A stretch of DNA of 9,137 nt from a virus (IMGVR_UViG_2648501165_000018:1-9137), one strand, 5' to 3'. Shown: positions 1-9,137, numbered from the stretch's first letter. The notes: generated from the letters alone by a model not told the origin. A program made the numbers and translations.

Positions 1-528
1 ATGCTAAATGTAAGGTTTGATTCAGAAAAGGCTTTAGAGGCCATTCTGTACGTCGCCTCTAAAGCACCGATCCCAGATATCTATCATGTCGGAAAAATTC
101 TTTATTATGCTGACAGGTTTCACCTTGAAAGTTTTGGACGCCTCATAACGGGCGATCACTATAACGCTATGAAGGATGGGCCTGTAGCAAGCAACACATA
201 CGATATTATAAAAATTGCTCGTGGAAATGGACGTTACATTCCTAATGGTTGTGATGTCGATTCTGTGCGAAAAGCATTTTCTGTATCAGGTATGACGATT
301 GTGCCGAGCCGTGAAGCTGATGAAGACTTTTTTAGTGACTCAGATTTAGAGTGTATTGATAAGTCTATCGCGATGCTTGGAAACATGTCCTTTGAAGCTA
401 TCAGAACCATGAGCCATGACGCGGCATGGGAACAGGCAGATCACAATGGTGAGATGTCTTTGGAATCGATAGTTGCACAGCTAAAAAATAGCAAATTAAT
501 ACTGGATTATCTGAAGAACGGATATTGA
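1..528 (+). CDS. Panacea-domain (DUF4065, SocA/PanA-like) protein, putative antitoxin or immunity component
   Basis: 175-aa ORF starting at the first base of the window, so the true start may lie upstream. The N-terminal half (…KALEAILYVASKAP…YHVGKILYYADRFHLESFGRLITGDHYNAMKDGPVASNTYDIIK) matches my recollection of the DUF4065/Panacea signature (KLxKLLYyAd…HL…g.pl…Y.A…GPV…Y). Stop TGA at 526-528 lies 5 nt before the first ATG of the next ORF. Family assignment is from memory, not from an HMM search. Confidence 0.6.
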   Translation: MLNVRFDSEKALEAILYVASKAPIPDIYHVGKILYYADRFHLESFGRLITGDHYNAMKDGPVASNTYDIIKIARGNGRYIPNGCDVDSVRKAFSVSGMTIVPSREADEDFFSDSDLECIDKSIAMLGNMSFEAIRTMSHDAAWEQADHNGEMSLESIVAQLKNSKLILDYLKNGY

Positions 529-533
529 TACTT

Positions 534-995
534 ATGCTGGGTGATTGTTTCCCTCCTGATTTTAAGGCTAATTTTAGTCGTGAAAGAGGTATATCACCCG
601 GTGATGTATTGTATCTTCATTGTGATTTTACGACCCCACCTAAAGTAAAATATATGGTGGTTGTTTGCTGTGAACCTCTTTTAGTTCTTCTAATAAATTC
701 AGATATAAATGAATTTATTAAGAGAAACAATGATCTTATGGCTTGTCAGGTCGAAATTAATAGAGAGGACCATGATTTTCTTAAATGGGACTCATTTGTT
801 AATTGCATTGAGGCTCATGCTGCTTTCGATCTTGAAATTATTAAAGAGAAAATAGCCATCCAATATGGTGACGTGCTAAAAGGTCGCATTACAGATCATT
901 GTATGAGACAAGTTCGATGTGCAGTTGAGATATCTAAAACTATGGTTAAACGGCATAAAAAACTGATACTCGCTGCTCTTCAACATTATGAATAA
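534..995 (+). CDS. hypothetical protein, candidate toxin/effector partner of the Panacea-domain gene
   Basis: ORF track gives 525..995 with a TTG start that overlaps the upstream stop; the first ATG is at 534 (MLGDCFPP…, 153 aa). No strong Shine-Dalgarno, consistent with translational coupling. Visibly AT-richer than the phage genes to its right. No catalytic motif recognised. Followed immediately by a hairpin terminator. Confidence 0.5.
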   Translation: MLGDCFPPDFKANFSRERGISPGDVLYLHCDFTTPPKVKYMVVVCCEPLLVLLINSDINEFIKRNNDLMACQVEINREDHDFLKWDSFVNCIEAHAAFDLEIIKEKIAIQYGDVLKGRITDHCMRQVRCAVEISKTMVKRHKKLILAALQHYE

Positions 996-1015
996 ACCCA
1001 TCTTTGGATGGGTTT
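994..1015. terminator. bidirectional intrinsic terminator between convergent operons
   Basis: Perfect 9-bp inverted repeat AAACCCATC (994-1002) / GATGGGTTT (1007-1015) with a TTTG loop. It is followed by TTTATTCAT on the plus strand and by an equivalent U-rich run on the minus strand. It sits between the stop of the + ORF (993-995) and the stop of the minus-strand PrtN-like ORF (1029-1031). Confidence 0.5.
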
Positions 1016-1028
1016 ATTCATATTCTAT

Positions 1029-1301
1029 TTAAATGAGCCTTTGTTTATGGGTTCTGACCCTTTCCCACTCAGCACGCCCTTCTTCTCGCCTTTTGTCTAT
1101 GTATTCCGCAAGATCCTGAATATTGATGCAACGTTTTGCTTTTTGTGATGTGCCGATGCGATATGTTGGAACGGGCAACTTACAAGCGTTTGCTTTTGCT
1201 TCTGCCGTGGCTGGACTCATGCCAAAGTACTTTTGGCTAACTGCTGAGAGTTCAATGTTAGGGGTATTGAATTCAGCCATCAGTAAAAACAAGGTGTTCA
1301 T
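1029..1301 (-). CDS. PrtN-like (pyocin-activator family) small DNA-binding protein
   Basis: The ORF track's 99-aa version begins at a GTG (1328). I prefer the ATG at 1301 (MNTLFLLMAEFNTPNIELSAVSQKYFGMSPATAEAKANACKLPVPTYRIG…), which is preceded by GGAGA 5 nt upstream; an ATG at 1313 is an alternative. Sequence resembles the PyocinActivator/PrtN family as I recall it. Last gene of the minus-strand operon. Confidence 0.5.
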   Translation of the reverse strand: MNTLFLLMAEFNTPNIELSAVSQKYFGMSPATAEAKANACKLPVPTYRIGTSQKAKRCINIQDLAEYIDKRREEGRAEWERVRTHKQRLI

Positions 1302-1337
1302 AATTTTCTCCATCAAAACCGGCTGCACCCGGGAAAA

Positions 1338-1910
1338 TCATAATTCTGTGCTGGTGGCAGGAATTAGTTTCTGCCAGATAGCGGAAACATATTTTGCCTG
1401 ATGACGGGCATCAGCCAGGGCGTTGTGCCGTTCGCCATCGAAAGGCATGTCCATTTTTGGGTCGAATCCGATGGAACGCCCAAGCGTAACGATCGTGCGT
1501 ACATCGTGGTCATTCCAGTACGCCCACGGGCAGATTTGTCCTGCTCGCTCGTAAGCTCCACGTAAAATTACGTTGTCGAAGGTGGCCCCGTTACCCCAGA
1601 CTTTTAAATATTTTGTATTGTCTGCATGCTGATTAATGAAATGGCTCAGTTCAGAGAGTGCATCGCTGATCGACAAAGTATCATCAATACAGATTGCAGC
1701 TCGTGCTTCAGAGCTCTGTTTCAACCACCACAGGATGGTATCGCCGTCAGGTGTAGCTCCTTGCCCCATAGCACTTTCCAGGCTAACAACCGTATAGAAT
1801 TCTTGTCCGATGTCTCCGGTTTCTGGAGTGAAGAACACCGCGCCAATGGAAACGATCGGTGCATCCTTATTTTTCCCCATCGTCTCAAGGTCGATCATTA
1901 AGTTATTCAT
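1338..1910 (-). CDS. DEDDh-type 3'-5' exonuclease (DnaQ-like fold)
   Basis: 190 aa. N-terminal MIDLETMG carries the Exo I D-x-E motif and HNALADARH near the C-terminus carries the Exo III H-x4-D motif. SD GGAGGTGA lies 5 nt upstream of the ATG at 1910. The start overlaps the upstream stop by 1 nt (TAATG). Confidence 0.7.
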   Translation of the reverse strand: MNNLMIDLETMGKNKDAPIVSIGAVFFTPETGDIGQEFYTVVSLESAMGQGATPDGDTILWWLKQSSEARAAICIDDTLSISDALSELSHFINQHADNTKYLKVWGNGATFDNVILRGAYERAGQICPWAYWNDHDVRTIVTLGRSIGFDPKMDMPFDGERHNALADARHQAKYVSAIWQKLIPATSTEL

Positions 1911-2221
1911 TACTTCACCTCCTGCGTTTCTTTGCTGCTGTGAATTCGCCAGTTACCGACGCCTTCCCATTCAAACTGGCGGTTACTAATTCGCGTCCAG
2001 CCCCTGCCGAAAAGCAAATCCAGATACCAGTATTTTAAAGTTCTGATAATTGCTCTTACAGTTGGTTTGCATCCAGAAGTCTTTGATGCGCAAATAAAGC
2101 ACCGAGTTATGCTCATGGCTTCTACAAAAGGCCAGATAAACCAAACCCAGATGCAAAGAGCCACGAACAACATGAGCGCGATGTTAGCCACTAAGCCAGA
2201 CCAGTACAGATAATTGCTCAT
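1910..2221 (-). CDS. hypothetical small membrane protein with Cys cluster
   Basis: 103 aa. A hydrophobic N-terminal segment (LVANIALMLFVALCIWVWFIWPFV) predicts one transmembrane helix, followed by CFICASKTSGCKP. The start at 2221 overlaps the upstream stop (ATGA-type junction). Confidence 0.5.
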   Translation of the reverse strand: MSNYLYWSGLVANIALMLFVALCIWVWFIWPFVEAMSITRCFICASKTSGCKPTVRAIIRTLKYWYLDLLFGRGWTRISNRQFEWEGVGNWRIHSSKETQEVK

Positions 2222-2601
2222 TGGTTGCCTCCACCTTGGCTCTGAAGCATGGCAGCGCGGCAGGCGTTCCAGCCATCAACATACCCAGCCATGATATATC
2301 GATTAAAACCCACCTCTTTCTGTGCGCGTGCCAGATTCATTTCCTCCGGCACGTGTACTGGCTGAGCTATATATAGCGGCTGAACATACCAACCCTTTGA
2401 TAACCAACTGTCAGCAACGTTTTTACTCCGTGTTATTGCCGGAATACCTAAGCCATTGTCTGAATGCAGCCATGCCACCGGTTCTGCTTCCAGCGATGCC
2501 AGCGTAATCCGTGCAAGTTCCATTTGTTCACCACGGGTAAGCCCGTTTTCAAGCGGATTTTTAATGAATAATTCGATACGTTCTTTGGTAATAGAATTCA
2601 T
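2218..2601 (-). CDS. hypothetical phage protein
   Basis: 127 aa. The ATG at 2601 is preceded by AAGGTG 7 nt upstream and lies 1 nt after the upstream stop (TAG C ATG). No domain recognised. Confidence 0.5.
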   Translation of the reverse strand: MNSITKERIELFIKNPLENGLTRGEQMELARITLASLEAEPVAWLHSDNGLGIPAITRSKNVADSWLSKGWYVQPLYIAQPVHVPEEMNLARAQKEVGFNRYIMAGYVDGWNACRAAMLQSQGGGNQ

Positions 2602-2602
2602 G

Positions 2603-2794
2603 CTATTTCACCTTAATCTCAACATTTCGCAGCTTTATGTCTACTGGTAGGTCTGACTTTCCTGTTAACGCTAATGCGAGATTTTCAGGAGTAATGAGAG
2701 CAGTTATTGTTTTCCCCATCGCCAGACGAATAATCATTCGTATCTCGCGATCGTCACATGCTCCCGGTCGAACAATTGAGATTTGTCCGTTCAT
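2603..2794 (-). CDS. hypothetical small phage protein (63 aa)
   Basis: ORF track gives 2603..2824 with a TTG start. The ATG at 2794 (MNGQISIVRPG…) has a strong SD AAGGAGAG 6 nt upstream and lies 1 nt after the upstream TGA, so I take 2794 as the start. Confidence 0.45.
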   Translation of the reverse strand: MNGQISIVRPGACDDREIRMIIRLAMGKTITALITPENLALALTGKSDLPVDIKLRNVEIKVK

Positions 2795-2795
2795 C

Positions 2796-3383
2796 TCACT
2801 CTCCTTTGATGCGAATGCCAGCAAGCCAGTTTCTTATGCCGATATATTCAGCGTTCCTGAAACCGCTTTTTACATATATAAATGGCAAGCGAAGATTGTG
2901 ACCGTTGGCTGCCAGGTAGTCTTTACAACCCTGTTCGGTGAAACAGCAGGTAACGAATTCATCAATATCTTTCACAGCAACGCGCCGCCATTTTTCTGGT
3001 GGTTCCCGAAAGTTTTCATGAAGTAGTTCGAGACGACGACTTTGGAGTTTATTGGCTTCATTGCCATCTTCATCAACCCAGACAATCCGGTCATAGTCAT
3101 AATCAGCATCAACAACAATTTCGCGCTTTTGATACACACAAAACATAGGGTCTGACGTTATTCGATTATCCTGTGTTCGAATATTTTCACCGATGATGCC
3201 AAACGAATCTGGCGTAGGTTTTGTCTGTAACTCTTCGATACGTTCAGCCAGCGCCGCGCACTTGGCCTCAGCTTCAGCAAATTTACGCACCAGGTACTCA
3301 GCGTTTGTTTCGTTCACTTTCAGATCTCGCGGTACACATTTCCCGCGAAGAAACCCTTCCATTTCGAAAACATTCATGCGCAT
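2796..3383 (-). CDS. hypothetical phage protein with N-terminal coiled-coil-like segment
   Basis: 195 aa from the ATG at 3383. An alternative ATG at 3377 forms an ATGA overlap with the stop of the upstream HD-domain gene. The N-terminus contains a helical, charged stretch (AEAEAKCAALAERIEELQ) and the C-terminus is acidic (DADYDYDRIVWVDEDGNE). No family recognised. Confidence 0.55.
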   Translation of the reverse strand: MRMNVFEMEGFLRGKCVPRDLKVNETNAEYLVRKFAEAEAKCAALAERIEELQTKPTPDSFGIIGENIRTQDNRITSDPMFCVYQKREIVVDADYDYDRIVWVDEDGNEANKLQSRRLELLHENFREPPEKWRRVAVKDIDEFVTCCFTEQGCKDYLAANGHNLRLPFIYVKSGFRNAEYIGIRNWLAGIRIKGE

Positions 3384-3910
3384 TTGCGTAACCCCGATAA
3401 CTCGTTAAAACGTTCCATAAACATCCCGTAGGCATGGCCTGGTGACAGTGGAATAACTTTGAACATCTCTGTCGCCGGGATACCTTCCAGTACAGGCCAG
3501 AAAGAGCCATCATCAAGCCCGAGATCGCGGCGTTCGGTTGCCAGCATAATGAGATCGGCATATTTCACAGGCGTGCTCATAACCGGGGGTAACCCGTATT
3601 TCTCACGGATTACGGCGTCTATTTTTTCTTCCATCCGTTTATAGTCAGGAAGAAGGCGTTTCAGTGGCGCGGGGATGTCCTGGCAATACGCTTCTGTTGC
3701 ATCATGCATTAACGCTTCAAAAGCAAATTCCTGTGGCACCAGCTGGCTGCAAAGCACCGCATGTTGGGCGACGCTGTAGAAGTGTGAAAGATGTCCTGCA
3801 AAGCGACAGATATTTGAAAGGGAAACCGCGATATCGTTAATCACGATGTCGTCTTTATTTATCCTGTCATAATAAAAATGCTTCCCGGAAAAAGTTTTAA
3901 TAAATGACAT
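3374..3910 (-). CDS. yfdR: HD-domain phosphohydrolase, YfdR-like (5'-deoxynucleotidase family)
   Basis: ORF track starts at a GTG (3940). The ATG at 3910 (MSFIKTFSG…) has SD GGAGAA 4-5 nt upstream and gives 178 aa. HD-domain signature residues are present (…ICRFAGH…, …LMHDATEAY…). Length and synteny with a 274-aa and a 120-aa gene match the yfdP-yfdQ-yfdR block of the E. coli CPS-53 prophage as I recall it; the symbol is assigned from recalled length, synteny and motif, not from alignment. Confidence 0.65.
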   Translation of the reverse strand: MSFIKTFSGKHFYYDRINKDDIVINDIAVSLSNICRFAGHLSHFYSVAQHAVLCSQLVPQEFAFEALMHDATEAYCQDIPAPLKRLLPDYKRMEEKIDAVIREKYGLPPVMSTPVKYADLIMLATERRDLGLDDGSFWPVLEGIPATEMFKVIPLSPGHAYGMFMERFNELSGLRKCA

Positions 3911-4003
3911 TTTGTTCTCCACGTAAATGTGTTGCACCACGCTGAATTCTGGTAAAAGGAAGCCCTCACCATCCGGTGATTATTGAGTTAATTACGTTTC
4001 CAT

Positions 4004-4025
4004 AAATGCCCCCGCAGGGGCATTT
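4004..4025 (-). other. intercistronic RNA hairpin between the yfdQ-like and yfdR-like genes
   Basis: AAATGCCCC (4004-4012) / GGGGCATTT (4017-4025) forms a 9-bp stem with a 4-nt loop, 13 nt downstream of the yfdQ-like stop. The downstream sequence on the minus strand is only moderately U-rich, so it is more likely a stability/processing hairpin or weak attenuator than a strong terminator. It lies in an unusually long (127-bp) spacer in an otherwise overlapping operon. Confidence 0.3.
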
Positions 4026-4037
4026 GCAGTAATGAAA

Positions 4038-4862
4038 TCAGGCGGTGAAAGTACCAATAAAGGTTTCTACTTTGCTGTCTTTGAATTTCTCAACAAGCAG
4101 ATCACGAAATTCGTTAGCCATTTCCTCCTGCACTGCTTCCAGCTGAATAATGCGCAGAACCAGTACAGGACGATCGCCAGTGATAATGCTGAGGCGTAAT
4201 TTAAACGGACGTTCTTTCAGGCCTTCAAACGGAACGCATTTGAATTCAAATGCCACTGGCATAATGTCTTTGGTTTTCGCTTCGACAGACTCCATCAGGG
4301 AGCGTTTGCCGCTGAAGTCATTGTCTTCAAAATCAGCGGTCTGGTTTGCTTCAATCGTGATTTTACGGACTGCCGCAGCTGCTTTTGTTGCCTGAATAGC
4401 GTCACCATTAGCATCAAAGCCCACAAGGTAGTCCGCCCAGTCTTCAATCCATTCTGCCAGTGACTTCTGGGAGTTACGCTCGCCATTAACAGACAACAGA
4501 GCAGAGAACGGTGCTGTCTTTTTCAGTTTGAGAGTGGCGGTGTTATCTGCGTGGCCTGGTTCATCAATAGTACCAAGATTAAGCACACTGACAGCACGCA
4601 TATTATCAGCATCGATAAAGCAGCGGGTGCCTTCATCTGCAAGATCTTTAGAATAACGGGTAAAGTCATCGATGCTGGCAGTGGAAAGCGCACCACGGAA
4701 ACGGAAGCGATTTAAATTAAATTTTTCCAGATCATGAATGCGGAAATTCTCAGGCAATGCCACAGCATCAGCACCAATCTTACTGATAATTTCATTAACA
4801 CCCTGAGCAGAAATAAGGGCATGGATTTGATTAATTGCAGTTGCGTCTAAGTTCTGAGACAT
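4038..4862 (-). CDS. yfdQ: YfdQ-like protein (DUF2303 family), function unknown
   Basis: 274 aa. The ATG at 4862 has SD GAGGA 6 nt upstream. Length and position between the YfdP-like and YfdR-like genes match the CPS-53 yfdP-yfdQ-yfdR arrangement. Assignment is by recollection, not alignment. Confidence 0.6.
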
Positions 4863-4927
4863 AATAAGTCCTCACTATATAAAGATATTCAGTGATGAGA
4901 TAAAAAATCAGTTTATTAAGAACGATA

Positions 4928-5290
4928 TTAACGACCTGCTGCGCGGAGTTTTCCGTCAGGTTCACCGGCAAGAGTCAGTAATTGTCCCTGGTCTTCCTGC
5001 AGAATAGTCAGACGACCACCGCGATTGACATACATCGGCGTTTCGGTGGTGTCTTCTTCGGAAATTTTCCCGCGGTTAGTCGGGCGAACATATGAGAGTT
5101 TGTGTTTGATTTTCACACGGTTCTCATCAAATGGTTCGATTTCCAGGTTGAGTGAGACCTTACCTTTGGTTTTCGTGTTCATCACACCGGAAGCGACTTC
5201 ACTGAGAACTGCGCCGATTTTGGTTTCAAATACGCCGCCGTCCAGCTCCCCGATAAATGCCTGCACATCAGTACTGCGTTCGCTAGCCAT
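4928..5290 (-). CDS. YfdP-like hypothetical phage protein (120 aa), first gene of the early-left operon
   Basis: ORF track extends to a TTG at 5476 and runs through a terminator hairpin. The ATG at 5290 (MASERSTDVQAFIGELDGG…) has SD GAGGAG 6-8 nt upstream and gives 120 aa, the length I recall for YfdP. Confidence 0.55.
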   Translation of the reverse strand: MASERSTDVQAFIGELDGGVFETKIGAVLSEVASGVMNTKTKGKVSLNLEIEPFDENRVKIKHKLSYVRPTNRGKISEEDTTETPMYVNRGGRLTILQEDQGQLLTLAGEPDGKLRAAGR

Positions 5291-5338
5291 TTTGCTGCTC
5301 CTCATCATATCGACCCTGCAAGGTCGGTTGGTTTCTCC

Positions 5339-5427
5339 ACAAAACAGAGAAGAACACCTGCGGTGGCAGCCGCCCGGATGGATTGGGTTATGAGCCCGTC
5401 GTCCGGTGATGCTCTTCTCTGTTTTGT
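5339..5427. repeat. 89-bp element bounded by perfect 15-bp inverted repeats (ACAAAACAGAGAAGA … TCTTCTCTGTTTTGT)
   Basis: Positions 5339-5353 are the exact reverse complement of 5413-5427. The 59-bp interior is GC-rich and holds further short palindromes (CCGGA…TCCGG, GCGG…CCGC). It lies in the untranslated leader just upstream of the YfdP-like RBS and directly downstream (on the minus strand) of the terminator U-tract. Confidence 0.6.
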
Positions 5428-5434
5428 AAAAAGA

Positions 5435-5473
5435 GCGGTACCAGCCGGAAGCAAGTGTACAAACTGGTACCGC
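5435..5473 (-). terminator. intrinsic terminator in the early-left leader
   Basis: 10-bp GC-rich stem GCGGTACCAG (5435-5444) / CTGGTACCGC (5464-5473) with a 19-nt loop. On the minus strand the 3' arm is followed directly by TCTTTTTAC (reverse complement of 5426-5434). Confidence 0.5.
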
Positions 5474-5904
5474 CAAAGCAGTGGCTGTTGTGGTGATCGG
5501 TGATGATCTCCGGCTTGCGGTTATTTCAGACTCTCACGGGCATTTAATTGCCCCGCCGAACAGCTCTTTTCCGCAATAGCTGCAATGTCTTTCGCGCATC
5601 AGCCTGCGCATTCACCACAACGCTGAGAGCACTTAGCCAGTTACGGCACCACACTTTGTCGCGGTTCCATAAATGCCCTCATAGTTGCACCCTGGTCTCT
5701 TCCCAGGCGTCAAACCGAATCGCCACGCTGGTTAGGCGTCTTATCAGCATCATCATTGACTTGCACATTCCGGCTACCTGGTTTGTTTGCCCGAGCAAGG
5801 AGTGGATTGTCCCCTTTAACGTCCCCAGACCGCTAACGACGCATGTGCCATACGCCGTGTTACAACCAAATTTTGTTAGTACCTTGTTTGTTGGTCTGGA
5901 AAGA

Positions 5905-5957
5905 AAGATAAAATGAAGTTGCGCATTATGCAAGTATTTTTGTTGCGAGATATGCAA
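5905..5957 (-). promoter_or_regulatory. candidate OL operators and PL-like leftward promoter
   Basis: Two copies of a 15-bp motif TTGCG-N3-TATGCAA (5919-5933 TTGCGCATTATGCAA; 5943-5957 TTGCGAGATATGCAA), centres 24 bp apart. The same motif with one mismatch occurs in the cI/cro intergenic region. On the minus strand a -35 TTGCAT (5928-5933) and a -10 TATCTT (5905-5910) are 17 bp apart and overlap the first site. Promoter assignment is by eye only. Confidence 0.35.
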
Positions 5958-5974
5958 TTTGATGGGTAATGAAA

Positions 5975-5992
5975 AGCCACCTTCGGGTGGCT
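5975..5992 (-). terminator. intrinsic terminator downstream of the cI-like repressor gene
   Basis: AGCCACC (5975-5981) / TTCG loop / GGTGGCT (5986-5992), 20 nt after the cI stop. On the minus strand it is followed by TTTCATTAC. Confidence 0.5.
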
Positions 5993-6012
5993 AATTGATG
6001 AGGAGGTAAGGG

Positions 6013-6705
6013 TTAATTGTGTCGCTTAAGGGTTTGTGACTGGCTGATTAAGACCTTTCCAAAGACCATAAACCGGTGTTCATTTTCGCTGGTAATTCCC
6101 CATTCACGATAAATCTGGTTATCAGAAATCACCAGTAGTTTGTCAGGTATCATTTGCAGTCGTTTGACATAAATTTTATCATCAAAACCAAATACATAGA
6201 TACCATCTCCATCAAACTGATTGATACTGACATCAACGAAGATGAGATCTCCTGGCTCAATGGTTGGACACATACTGTCCCCACGAACGTTGATAACTTT
6301 AATGTGATTTGCTGGCCGTCCGCCAAACATCGATACAGCATTATCAGTTCTGTATTCAATGGCATGAATCACATCAATGACATCTCCGCCCTGGATAAGG
6401 CCATTTCCCGCACTGGCACTGATATCCAGCATTTCAATACGGAATACATCCTTCACCTGCGCAATATCCTCACTAATACTGTTTTTACATACAGTATTAC
6501 TTTTGAAGTCTGAGGTAAAGAGATCAGCAATATCAACACCTAAGCTCCTGGCAATATTACTCAGGGCTTGTTCAGTGAATTGTTTCTGCTTACCTGTTTC
6601 GAGGCGCGAGATATTCGCCGCATCCACTCCTATTGCTTCAGCGAGATCGGCGATTTTCATGTTCTTCGCCTGGCGAAGTTGTCTGACTCGATTTCCTATG
6701 TTCAT
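6013..6705 (-). CDS. CI-like prophage repressor (HTH-XRE N-terminal domain + S24 LexA-like autopeptidase domain)
   Basis: 230 aa. N-terminal HTH (VRQLRQAKNMKIADLAEAIGVDAANISRLETGK). C-terminal S24 signature with the catalytic Ser in RGDSMCPTIEPGDLIFVD and the Lys in IYVKRL, plus an Ala-Gly candidate cleavage site (SASAGNG). Divergent from the Cro-like gene. The -10-like TGTAAT ends 6 nt before the ATG, suggesting a leaderless or short-leader mRNA as with lambda PRM. Confidence 0.8.
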   Translation of the reverse strand: MNIGNRVRQLRQAKNMKIADLAEAIGVDAANISRLETGKQKQFTEQALSNIARSLGVDIADLFTSDFKSNTVCKNSISEDIAQVKDVFRIEMLDISASAGNGLIQGGDVIDVIHAIEYRTDNAVSMFGGRPANHIKVINVRGDSMCPTIEPGDLIFVDVSINQFDGDGIYVFGFDDKIYVKRLQMIPDKLLVISDNQIYREWGITSENEHRFMVFGKVLISQSQTLKRHN

Positions 6706-6802
6706 GCGTTTATTACATTTCTTTATTGCGCGTTAAGCAAATCAACTTGCGCAAAATATTTGCGTGAAATAATATGCTCATCACGCAATATGTGGAGGTT
6801 AT
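6706..6802. promoter_or_regulatory. divergent immunity control region (OR-like operators, PRM-like and PR-like promoters)
   Basis: Operator-like sites: TTGCGCGTTAAGCAA (6726-6740), the palindromic TTGCGCAA (6747-6754), and the inverted repeat TTGCGTGA (6760-6767) / TCACGCAA (6781-6788). Rightward candidate promoter: -35 TTGCGC (6747-6752), 17-bp spacer, -10 TAATAT (6770-6775). Leftward candidate promoter: -35 TTGCTT (6735-6740 on minus), 17-bp spacer, -10 TGTAAT (6712-6717 on minus). SD GGAGG (6794-6798) precedes the cro-like ATG at 6803. Confidence 0.45.
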
Positions 6803-7063
6803 ATGCAATCACCATTACGGAATGTGCGTAAGGCGCACGGATTTACTTTGCAGCATGTTGCTGCGGGCGTTCAGGTCAATCCAGCGACGCTGAGTCGTAT
6901 TGAAAGACTGGAACAAATTCCATCTATCGAGCTTGCAGAACGTCTGGCCAATTTTTTTAAGGGAGAAATCAGCGAAATGCAGATTCTCTATCCTGCACGC
7001 TTTCAATCTAGTCAAAACCGGAATGAGTTAAAACCACAGGAACAGGAGGTAAGCCGTGGGTAA
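6803..7063 (+). CDS. Cro-like HTH-XRE transcriptional regulator
   Basis: 86 aa. HTH (LRNVRKAHGFTLQHVAAGVQVNPATLSRIERLE). First gene rightward of the repressor, preceded by GGAGG. Confidence 0.7.
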   Translation: MQSPLRNVRKAHGFTLQHVAAGVQVNPATLSRIERLEQIPSIELAERLANFFKGEISEMQILYPARFQSSQNRNELKPQEQEVSRG

Positions 7064-7607
7064 GCATCACTGGAAAGTGGAAAAACAGCCTGAGTGGTAC
7101 GTGAAAGCTGTCAGAAAAACTATCGCGGCGTTGCCGGGGGGTTACGCTGAAGCTGCTGAGTGGCTGGATGTAACAGAGAACGCTTTATTCAACCGCCTTC
7201 GTGCCGATGGCGATCAGTTTTTTCCGTTGGGATGGGCAATGGTTTTACAGCGTGCGGCTGGTACTCACCACATTGCGGATGCTGTCGCACAGTCTGCTGG
7301 TGGGGTGTTTGTATCACTTCCAGAAATTGAGGAAGTAGAGAACGCCGATATAAACCAGCGCCTGCTGGAAGTCATCGAACAGATCGGGAGTTACTCAAAG
7401 CAGATTCGTTCGGCAATCGAAGATGGGGTAGTGGAGCCACACGAGCAGACAGCAATTAATGATGAGTTGTATCTGTCAATTTCGAAGCTCCAGGAGCATG
7501 CAGCACTGGTCTACAAAATCTTCTGCGCTCCAGAAAAGAGTAACGCCCGCGAGTGTGCAGCTCCGGGCGTCGTGGCGTTTTGTGTCTGTGGAGAAACTAA
7601 CGCATGA
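7056..7607 (+). CDS. CII-like phage regulatory protein (186-CII/CP76-type, positional CII equivalent)
   Basis: 183 aa. GTG start at 7056 with a strong SD AGGAGGT (7044-7050) 5 nt upstream; overlaps the cro-like stop by 8 nt. Putative HTH GGYAEAAEWLDVTENALFNRLRADGDQ, followed by a …FFPLGWAMVLQRAAGTHHIADAVAQ… segment reminiscent of the phage 186 CII family as I recall it. Same position as cII in lambdoid layouts. Confidence 0.55.
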   Translation: MGKHHWKVEKQPEWYVKAVRKTIAALPGGYAEAAEWLDVTENALFNRLRADGDQFFPLGWAMVLQRAAGTHHIADAVAQSAGGVFVSLPEIEEVENADINQRLLEVIEQIGSYSKQIRSAIEDGVVEPHEQTAINDELYLSISKLQEHAALVYKIFCAPEKSNARECAAPGVVAFCVCGETNA

Positions 7608-8764
7608 ACAGTTTAACGGCAAATAACCGTTTGTCGCAACAGCTGGTGGTCAGTGTCGCTGCACACCTGTTGTTACGGCATGAATGCAGATTACCAAATC
7701 ACCTGGCTGTAAGTAACCACAGAGAACTTTACCTGACTGTGGGGGGCGAGTTGTGCAGGAACTTAACCGCTGGTTTCGTGACGGAAGAGGACTTTATGTT
7801 CATGTTATTCGTTGGGAGCCAGAAACACAGCGCGTTATCTATCTTCGCAAAGACTACCCGCATGAGTGCTTTAGTCCTTTGTGGAAATTCAGGCGTGATT
7901 TTGTTGAGTGTGAAGGACCACCAGCATATTGATTCTGCAATTCCGGGACGTTACACTGTTCAGGCACCTTATAAAGCGGGTGCCGGGATTGGCGTCCTGA
8001 AATTGTCAACGGCGATGTATGACGCGCCAGCGTCTTTTTTATCGTCCGCATTTGCTCACATCCAGATTATGGTGGGCTGGGCGGGGGCACCGAAAGGTGC
8101 GCCGGTCTCCGTTGACGCCGGTTACGCCAACCCCGTCCAGTTCACCACCAGTGAAATTGGCGTTTCCGGTGGTGGAAGTTTTTCACTGTCAACGGAGGCT
8201 GCCATCATGGCTACGATCCAAGCCCTCACTCAACCTGAAATCACCATTGACAACGGCCAGGCCGTTACCACTTCTTTGGCTGTTGCCAACTTCTTCTCCA
8301 AGCGTCACGACGATGTGCTGAAAAAGATCCGCACTCTGGATTGTTCCCCTGAGTTTTGTGCCCGCAATTTTGCGGAGACATCGATTTCGGTAAATCAACC
8401 GAACGGTGGTACACGCAAGCTCCCTTGCTATCAAATCACACGAGACGGTTTTGCGTTTCTTGCTATGGGTTTCACGGGTAAACGTGCTGCCCGGTTCAAA
8501 GAGGCATACATCAATGCCTTTAACCAGATGGAAAAACTGCTTTCAAAGCCATCCACGCTGAGCGATGCCGCAGATAACGCCAGCGTGCTTTACTCCCACC
8601 TGTCGGTAATCCACAAGGTCTGGCTGCAGCAGCTTTATCCTATGTTGGCAAAAGCTGAATCTCCGCTGGCTGTTAGCTTATATGATTATATTAATGATGC
8701 TTCGGCGCTGGCCTGCCTCATAAATTTGTCGCTGAACCCTTCAGAGGTAAGGGGGCGCAAATGA
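7604..8764 (+). CDS. Rha-domain phage regulatory protein (antirepressor-like); N-terminal extent uncertain
   Basis: The C-terminal ~185 aa (from the ATG at 8207, MATIQALTQPEITIDNGQAVTTSLAVANFFSKRHDDVLKKIRTL…ITRDGFAFLAMGFTGKRAARFKEAYINAFNQME) matches the Rha family as I recall it, and that ATG has a strong SD GGAGG 8 nt upstream. The frame is nevertheless open back to the ATG at 7604, which forms an ATGA junction with the CII-like gene; codon usage and the R/P/S-rich shadow frame argue that at least 8019-8206 is coding in this frame. The reported span is the full open frame. 8207..8764 is the conservative core. Confidence 0.5.
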   Translation: MNSLTANNRLSQQLVVSVAAHLLLRHECRLPNHLAVSNHRELYLTVGGELCRNLTAGFVTEEDFMFMLFVGSQKHSALSIFAKTTRMSALVLCGNSGVILLSVKDHQHIDSAIPGRYTVQAPYKAGAGIGVLKLSTAMYDAPASFLSSAFAHIQIMVGWAGAPKGAPVSVDAGYANPVQFTTSEIGVSGGGSFSLSTEAAIMATIQALTQPEITIDNGQAVTTSLAVANFFSKRHDDVLKKIRTLDCSPEFCARNFAETSISVNQPNGGTRKLPCYQITRDGFAFLAMGFTGKRAARFKEAYINAFNQMEKLLSKPSTLSDAADNASVLYSHLSVIHKVWLQQLYPMLAKAESPLAVSLYDYINDASALACLINLSLNPSEVRGRK

Positions 8765-8985
8765 TCCGGAATATTTTCAAACGGTTTACCAATCAGACTT
8801 TCCGTTGTCCTCGTCCGGGTCAGTGGTACACCACACCTGCAGGGCATGTTCTACGTGTTAGCCTGGTTGACCGTGAATGTCAGAAGGTGATTTGTGAACC
8901 GCTTGGCCGTAATTACCGCGTCAGTATGCCGCTTATAGCCTTTCGCTCCGGAAAAAACATGAAGCATCTCGGAGGTGCAGCATGA
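8761..8985 (+). CDS. hypothetical small phage protein (74 aa)
   Basis: ATGA overlap with the Rha ORF stop at 8761-8764 and a second ATGA overlap with the next gene's start at 8982-8985. Basic, Cys-containing (RCPRPGQW…RECQKVICEP). No domain recognised. Confidence 0.45.
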   Translation: MIRNIFKRFTNQTFRCPRPGQWYTTPAGHVLRVSLVDRECQKVICEPLGRNYRVSMPLIAFRSGKNMKHLGGAA

Positions 8986-9137
8986 GTATGGAGCTGATGG
9001 TTAAAGCGATGAAAATTCGAGTGGGTAATCCATTGCGAAAACTGGTTCTGATCAAGCTGGCTGATAATGCCAGCGATCAGGGTGAGTGCTGGCCCAGCTA
9101 CCAGCATATTGAACCGCCCCGGGTTTCCTGGAGAGTA
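8982..9137 (+). CDS. phage replication-initiation-type protein, N-terminal HTH fragment (truncated by window end)
   Basis: ATG at 8982 with SD GGAGG (8971-8975) 6 nt upstream. MSMELMVKAMKIRVGNPLRKLVLIKLADNASDQGECWPSYQHI… resembles the N-terminal winged-HTH of phage replication proteins (the …KLVLLALADHANDDGECFPS… pattern). Runs off the end of the window. Confidence 0.5.
   Translation, partial: MSMELMVKAMKIRVGNPLRKLVLIKLADNASDQGECWPSYQHIEPPRVSWRV

Follow-up and report, generated by a model that had tools for sequence, protein, structure and literature searches.

The first ~1048 bases of a 9,137-nucleotide stretch of viral DNA (IMGVR_UViG_2648501165_000018:1-9137; the whole stretch is called the window below, and positions are counted from its first base) probably form, together with ~100 bp upstream of it, an exchanged moron cassette that carries a pair of genes, panA and panT, of the PanAT family (PanT cluster T5) and acts as a toxin-antitoxin (TA) system. 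This reading draws on a compositional island whose edge coincides with a recombination boundary, on domain and fold assignments for the two products, on synteny of the pair across genera and on five different cassettes found in the same slot of related prophages. A sequence-only reading of the window had proposed by eye that its first two genes are an AT-rich cargo acquired by the phage, with a transcription unit of its own, and had set the end of this module at a bidirectional terminator.

Composition of the first kilobase

The window as a whole is 46.2% GC. Bases 1-995, which hold the two genes, are 38.1% GC, against 46.1% for bases 1030-5300 and 47.2% for bases 1030-9137, and gene by gene the content is 41.1% in 1-528 and 34.7% in 529-995. 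No segment of 995 bp or 467 bp anywhere in 1030-9137 equalled the AT-richness of the module or of its second half; for 1-528 by itself, 2.8% of the segments in the same region are equally low in GC. GC content at third codon positions (GC3) is 0.369 in gene 1 and 0.227-0.229 in gene 2, against 0.40-0.54 in nine genes of the early-left operon. Pooled, the module stands at 0.305 and the early-left genes at 0.460 (codon permutation, p ~5e-5), and the gap persists when permutation is confined to amino-acid classes, so that only synonymous codons are exchanged (p ~2e-4); a base-level 2x2 test gives chi2 = 20.6 and p = 5.5e-6. The by-eye description of 1-995 as AT-rich, moderately so in 1-528 and markedly so in 534-995, is accurate for both halves, and 1-995 can be told apart from 1030-5300 in GC content and in codon usage.

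The edge of the island is sharp. A single maximum-likelihood change point in GC content falls after base 1048 whether 1-5300 or 1-9137 is analyzed (log-likelihood ratios 12.4 and 17.3, respectively), and the observed ratio was attained in none of 300 shufflings of 50-bp blocks. GC content is 37.7% to the left of this point and 46-47% to its right, and a weaker internal step near 481 divides a gene 1 side at 42.6% from a gene 2 side at 33.7%. By eye the composition had been seen to change near 1030, and the computed change point lies 26 bp from the hairpin at 987-1022 that is described below.

On the scale of the full 50.5-kb prophage to which the window belongs (50.7% GC), 4% of 995-bp segments are as low in GC as the module or lower, and most of these come from one stronger AT island outside the window (L010 7832-9292; GC 29.5-32%, GC3 ~0.28-0.31). 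Located directly downstream of the Q antiterminator, that island has three minus-strand hypothetical genes and is probably another moron.

Alternative cassettes between attL and xis

Of 5426 complete E. coli genomes, 46 have the first 1030 bases of the window, 99-100% identical and in every case on the chromosome; the cassette had no match in a nucleotide search of a phage collection, and a protein search of plasmids likewise gave none. The region makes up, in strain OkiPb01711, the left end of a ~50.5-kb lambdoid prophage, where zur is followed by a DUF2713 pseudogene, by an orphan 5′ fragment of dusA and by panA, gene 2 and xis, and then, further on, by tail fibres, effector genes, dinI, int and an intact dusA. 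The prophage is integrated in the 5′ end of dusA and its end lies ~194 bp upstream of window base 1. Integrases specific for dusA swap the 5′ end of the gene for sequence supplied by the element (Farrugia et al. 2015, PMC4482086). Here the orphan fragment and the 5′ end that the phage has supplied to dusA share 83% identity, the signature of dusA-specific integration described by those authors. With the elements of that study the prophage shares an orphan 5′ fragment at attL, a replacement 5′ end at attR and an integrase divergent from dusA; it differs from their account in that the integrase was the sole universal feature there and an attL-proximal TA slot is not described. Several of its early-left genes are flagged as pseudogenes by the Prokaryotic Genome Annotation Pipeline (PGAP), and because of these and of an IS3 insertion the prophage is probably defective. 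The window ends ~15 bp before the gene for the IS3-family transposase (8982-9137; L010 2373-4500), which breaks a helix-turn-helix gene of the replication region.

The source locus was compared by BLASTN with five sibling prophages at the same dusA site. The flanks of the five are 92-98% identical. On the left they comprise chromosomal DNA, what remains of dusA and phage DNA of 60-105 bp, and on the right xis, exo and more genes, whereas the DNA between these conserved flanks is unrelated. Homology is lost at L002 5866-5910 (window -134 to -90), ~90-133 bp upstream of the window, and is regained at L002 7040-7051 (window 1040-1051), inside the last codons of xis. Since the GC change point at 1048, found independently, falls where sibling homology resumes, we take the cassette to run from ~90-130 bp upstream of the window to ~1048.

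Five cassettes occupy this slot, three of them with a Panacea protein. Cassette a is the panA-panT pair of the window (46 genomes); cassette b has another Panacea protein with a 128-amino-acid (aa) and a 57-aa protein (208 genomes); cassette c, that of O157:H7, has a 177-aa protein and the same 57-aa protein (358 genomes); cassette d has a third Panacea protein, whose 182-aa partner has a hydrophobic C-terminus (79 genomes); and cassette e has a 179-aa protein and a YafO-family toxin (52 genomes). The four alternatives to the window's cassette lie at L003 3721-4922, L004 4019-4922, L007 2912-3956 and L008 2962-3952. This type of xis is found in 741 of the 5426 E. coli genomes and the cassette counts (46+208+358+79+52) come to 743, which suggests that nearly every such prophage has one of the five fillings, adjacency having been checked in six loci only. 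No empty attL-xis slot was seen among the loci compared, only alternative fillings. The three Panacea proteins are 20-31% identical in pairwise comparison over the regions aligned by BLASTP, and their partners are mutually unrelated. All five cassettes (38.5-43.2% GC) are lower in GC than the phage DNA that follows on their right, the toxin gene is the AT-richest member in several of them, and each ends at the same place in a GC-core hairpin of its own, different from the others.

In the window this hairpin has a GC core, ACCCATC/GATGGGT, between AATAA/TTATT arms. The repeat and the panT stop codon (993-995) overlap, the stop codon of xis is 7 bp away, and a terminator scan matched the hairpin on the plus strand. 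It folds at -26.2 kcal/mol on the plus strand and -27.3 on the minus strand (z -6.6 and -7.0), and none of 200 shuffles was as stable. It is probably an intrinsic terminator shared by the panAT and early-left transcripts, which converge on it, and the A-rich and T-rich arms of the palindrome suggest that it would work in both directions. Thus, of the boundary proposed by eye the position holds, and its bidirectional function is a prediction from these arms.

The panA-panT pair and its proposed action

The product of panA matches the Pfam family PF13274, SocA_Panacea, over residues 32-143 of 175 (E 2.4e-20; 74 bits against a cut-off of 25.7) and is named 'Panacea domain-containing protein' by PGAP. 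PGAP places the start of the gene 54 nt upstream of the window (193 aa; L002 5947-6001). The 175-aa form is the more likely one, because the orthologues from Morganella and the Serratia phage have as their first residue the Met encoded at window base 1 and because the candidate -10 element upstream would leave the PGAP start a leader of ~6 nt.

The second gene starts 5 nt past the panA stop codon. Searches of Pfam, NCBIfam, PHROGs and PADLOC with it gave nothing usable, and its homologues are all ~150 aa long and have no Pfam domain. A word-indexed search found 41 clusters of homologues, mostly in Enterobacterales, with identical or 99%-identical proteins in Salmonella, and an exhaustive profile search found at least 1246 clusters at 50% identity (E <= 1e-3). 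Among 74 diverse members K39 and S87 are invariant, and G23, F32, N55, S56, L68, F82, L83, C91 and G117 are nearly so. PanT has the SH3-like barrel fold of the MazF/Kid/CcdB type, and in this it is like MazF, PemK and Kid (PF02452; PDB 4mzm, 6kys and 1m1f). It is unlike MazF in having no detectable sequence similarity to it, in its greater length (by ~40 residues, with helices at the N-terminus and two at the C-terminus), and in having as partner a Panacea protein and not an antitoxin of the MazE/AbrB fold.

Kurata et al. (2022, PNAS, PMC8832971) described PanAT systems as Panacea antitoxins paired with 88 clusters of toxins, mostly with the antitoxin gene first, and the pairs that they tested neutralise by a direct, stable complex, as type II systems typically do. 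Stand-alone Panacea can neutralise directly, as Ernits et al. (2023, PMC10440598) found, and these authors propose a sensor role for the domain. The present pair resembles PanAT in that the gene of a Panacea (DUF4065, PF13274) antitoxin stands first, a few nucleotides ahead of that of a small toxin, and in that PanAT pairs are mobile and often borne by prophages; the prophage slot and the cassette exchange are not described in the 2022 account. An entry of its Dataset S1 gives the Photorhabdus heterorhabditis protein WP_054475897.1 as a PanT of cluster T5 with PanA WP_054475899.1. Because P0033, a homologue 53% identical to gene 2 (E 9e-51), falls in the same 90% cluster as this T5-listed protein, gene 2 can be assigned, as far as that entry goes, to the catalogued cluster T5. 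The accessions of the pair itself (WP_046123654.1 and WP_000900143.1) and those of a sibling cassette had no match among the supplement entries listed. In the T5 entries of the same source, HHpred relates the T5 representative to EndoA/MazF at 99.5% and to CcdB at 98.3-98.6%, and the Chryseobacterium bovis member WP_076782181.1 is scored 'Toxic' in E. coli. Other MazF-like PanTs of that study, those of clusters T6 and T25, inhibited translation and bound their PanA.

The pair is kept together well beyond E. coli. The upstream Panacea gene is present next to the toxin gene in Idiomarina (toxin 42% identical), Morganella (51%) and the temperate Serratia phage vB_SspS_OS31 (46%), PanA and PanT diverge in parallel across these three, and the antitoxin-first order is found in all of them and in Photorhabdus. 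The surroundings differ: in Morganella (L006 1431-3536) the pair, with a gap of 3 nt, lies between dinI and a dusA-type integrase, and in the Serratia phage (L011 3444-4474) between Q and the lysis genes. In each place examined (Morganella, Idiomarina and the Serratia phage) it is AT-richer than its flanks. The module brings its AT-richness with it, and is marked by it as foreign to the phage operon around it. Of the 46 E. coli genomes with the pair, 45 have both open reading frames (ORFs) intact and no less than 99% identical, and the pair occurs in Salmonella also.

We propose that the cassette works as follows. Situated 60-105 bp inside attL, it would be transcribed toward the opposed xis/early-left operon and terminated just before it. 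Both genes may be expressed from the repressed prophage by way of an attL-adjacent promoter. By analogy with the pairs of Kurata et al. (2022) and Ernits et al. (2023), PanA would bind PanT and keep it inactive, as in type II systems. Should PanA be lost or triggered, PanT, judged by its fold and aligned residues, would act as a MazF-like endoribonuclease and translation would stop. The benefit to the prophage may be stabilisation, abortive-infection defence against other phages, or both.

The cassette has the properties of the moron of lambdoid phages (Juhala/Hendrix; summarised in PMC4378225): a composition unlike that of its neighbors, its own terminator, a candidate promoter, and a location between conserved genes and opposed to the flanking operon. 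It departs from that concept in being a two-gene unit and not a single gene.

A number of observations weigh against the proposal. The evidence for this particular pair comes from sequence and fold only. In the T5 entries of Kurata et al. (2022, PMC8832971) the cognate PanA of the one T5 toxin tested, that of C. bovis, is itself toxic, so that neutralisation by a T5 antitoxin is a presumption. In PADLOC-DB v2 PanA matched no model and PanT matched only PDC-M02B (12 bits, E 0.016). PF02452 matched neither gene 2 nor any of the 74 family members, a search of PDB sequences with the family profile gave chance matches only (augmin and bungarotoxin; E 0.4-3), and hhalign of the family against a small MazF/Kid alignment (four sequences, whose membership of PF02452 was confirmed) returned a probability of ~1%. 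A larger search for MazF homologues added no diversity, as the 120 matches listed are all near-identical Bacillaceae NdoA. MAFFT and hhalign agree in placing K39 on the catalytic Arg of MazF (Ec R29/Bs R25), N55-S56 on its catalytic Thr (Ec T52/Bs T48) and S87 on the conserved Bs S73, a Ser in contact with RNA; neither alignment is significant, so that this active-site register is suggestive only, and the putative catalytic residues that it places are Lys and Asn-Ser, not Arg and Thr. The candidate promoter, TTGACC-18-TAAGAT (L002 5905-5934; 66-95 bp upstream of the window), spans the left cassette junction, and matches of this kind to the consensus are no commoner in the DNA than in its shuffles. 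Of the view that the genes are an acquired cargo with their own transcription unit, the cargo part is established by the exchange and the boundary and the terminator is supported by the hairpin, while the promoter is a consensus match at chance level. Finally, codon adaptation, which the sequence-only reading had named as a check beside GC and GC3, sets the module apart weakly: an index modelled on the codon adaptation index, with ten neighboring host genes as reference, gives 0.54 and 0.48 for the two genes against 0.40-0.68 for phage genes, and because it discriminates poorly GC3 was used in its place.

The fold and the unusual residues leave some room for a different target. PanT might be the toxin of this same cassette and yet not be an RNase, since the gyrase poison CcdB has the MazF/Kid/CcdB fold as well, and the Lys, the Asn-Ser and the extra C-terminal helices could serve a different target, gyrase or another nucleic-acid or protein substrate. 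We consider this reading unlikely.

It is also quite unlikely, in our estimation, that the AT-richness is no mark of foreign origin but a property of the wider int-attP-slot region or a result of selection, such as silencing by H-NS or low toxin expression. The integrase of the same prophage (L010 42604-43701) is similarly AT-rich, at 41.9% GC and a GC3 of 0.336. It would adjoin attP and the cargo slot in the circular phage, so that the low-GC domain would be wider than the cassette. The low GC content common to the five cassettes and the still lower content of several of their toxin genes could be read in the same way. However, the GC change point falls exactly at the recombination boundary, the cassette has been exchanged independently of int and xis, and the pair is AT-richer than its flanks in other slots (between Q and lysis genes in OS31, between dinI and int in Morganella) and in Idiomarina, which belongs to a different order of bacteria; selection and foreign origin are moreover compatible and not mutually exclusive. 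Because the integrase next to it is AT-rich too, AT-richness alone is insufficient to prove the cargo status of the module; the comparative evidence does prove it.

Two further ideas have very little in their favor. In a SocAB-like type VI system PanA would be an adaptor that delivers the toxin to ClpXP, as in Caulobacter, and the Pfam family is indeed named after SocA; the match of PanA to the SocA equivalog (NCBIfam NF047745) is however a weak one of 17.5 bits against a cut-off of 190, for which a SocAB-type identity was rejected, the partner has the MazF fold and is not SocB, and all tested pairs of Kurata et al. (2022) formed stable type II complexes, which together make this reading highly improbable. 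Equally hard to credit is that both ORFs are decaying or functionless passengers of a defective prophage and their composition a relic, for despite its flagged pseudogenes and the IS3 insertion just past the window the two ORFs have stayed intact and nearly identical in E. coli and Salmonella, and the toxin family keeps its length and invariant residues across at least 1246 clusters and its synteny across bacterial orders.

An exchanged moron cassette with a PanAT(T5) pair is therefore the reading that we prefer. A more far-reaching version of it, which we put forward tentatively and with a good deal of doubt, is that the attL-xis slot of E. coli dusA prophages is a natural cassette-exchange site with fixed recombination points (~60-105 bp from attL and in the last xis codons) and that T5 PanT is a branch of the MazF fold in its own right, with re-tooled catalysis (Lys/Asn-Ser/Ser) and a specificity or target peculiar to it, and serves as a prophage abortive-infection effector.

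Other features of the window, and significance

Table 1. Features at the left end of the window, with the evidence on which each assignment is based
Feature	Position	Strand	Basis
Replaceable AT-rich cassette (probable moron)	1..1048	+	GC change point and BLASTN homology breaks
panA, Panacea-domain antitoxin, 175 aa from ATG at base 1	1..528	+	Pfam PF13274
panT, 153-aa putative toxin, MazF/Kid/CcdB-type fold with C-terminal helical extension	534..995	+	PanT cluster T5 (Kurata et al. 2022)
Inverted repeat, perfect over 16 bp, 4-nt loop; probable intrinsic terminator	987..1022	.	Terminator scan, RNA folding
xis, PrtN-family excisionase; the first phage gene that is conserved, bordering the slot on its right, outside the cassette	1029..1301	-	Pfam, PHROG, PGAP

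The xis product matches Pfam PF11112 (E 3.9e-23) and PHROG 1300, excisionase (E 6.9e-40). From 1029 the leftward genes are those for this excisionase and a 3′-5′ exonuclease and homologs of yfdR, yfdQ and yfdP, and beyond the last of these lie cI-like repressor, cro-like, ymfL and Rha genes. In a 722-bp stretch between the yfdP homolog and the cI-like repressor gene (5291-6012) no gene is annotated; its left part reaches 52-55% GC, more than any other stretch of the window, and a sibling prophage has a 164-aa ORF at this place.

Farther to the right, the ORF at 7604-8764 (386 aa) is named 'Rha family phage regulatory protein' by PGAP. Within it on the plus strand, in the interval 7964-8152, are two matches at Rfam gathering level, to the Hfq-binding RNA isrK (7964-8040, 62 bits) and to the C4 antisense RNA (8065-8152, 81 bits). 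The N-terminal half of this ORF is probably a non-coding immunity leader of the c4/isrK type, with a shorter ant/Rha gene starting near 8200.

Current concepts are left unchanged by these results, the pair being a further case of a family already catalogued, in a prophage of a known type. The compositional change seen by eye pinpointed a recombination boundary to within a few bases, and the cargo that it marked is a TA pair. The pair supplies a PanT T5 representative from E. coli and Salmonella, and so in a host that is open to genetic work. Of the by-products, the polymorphism of five cassettes at one slot is the most interesting, in which three of the five cassettes are built on Panacea antitoxins with unrelated partners; with five cassettes in one place, seemingly in nearly all of the 741 genomes with this xis, the slot is a natural system for the study of Panacea partner swapping and of prophage-borne defence.

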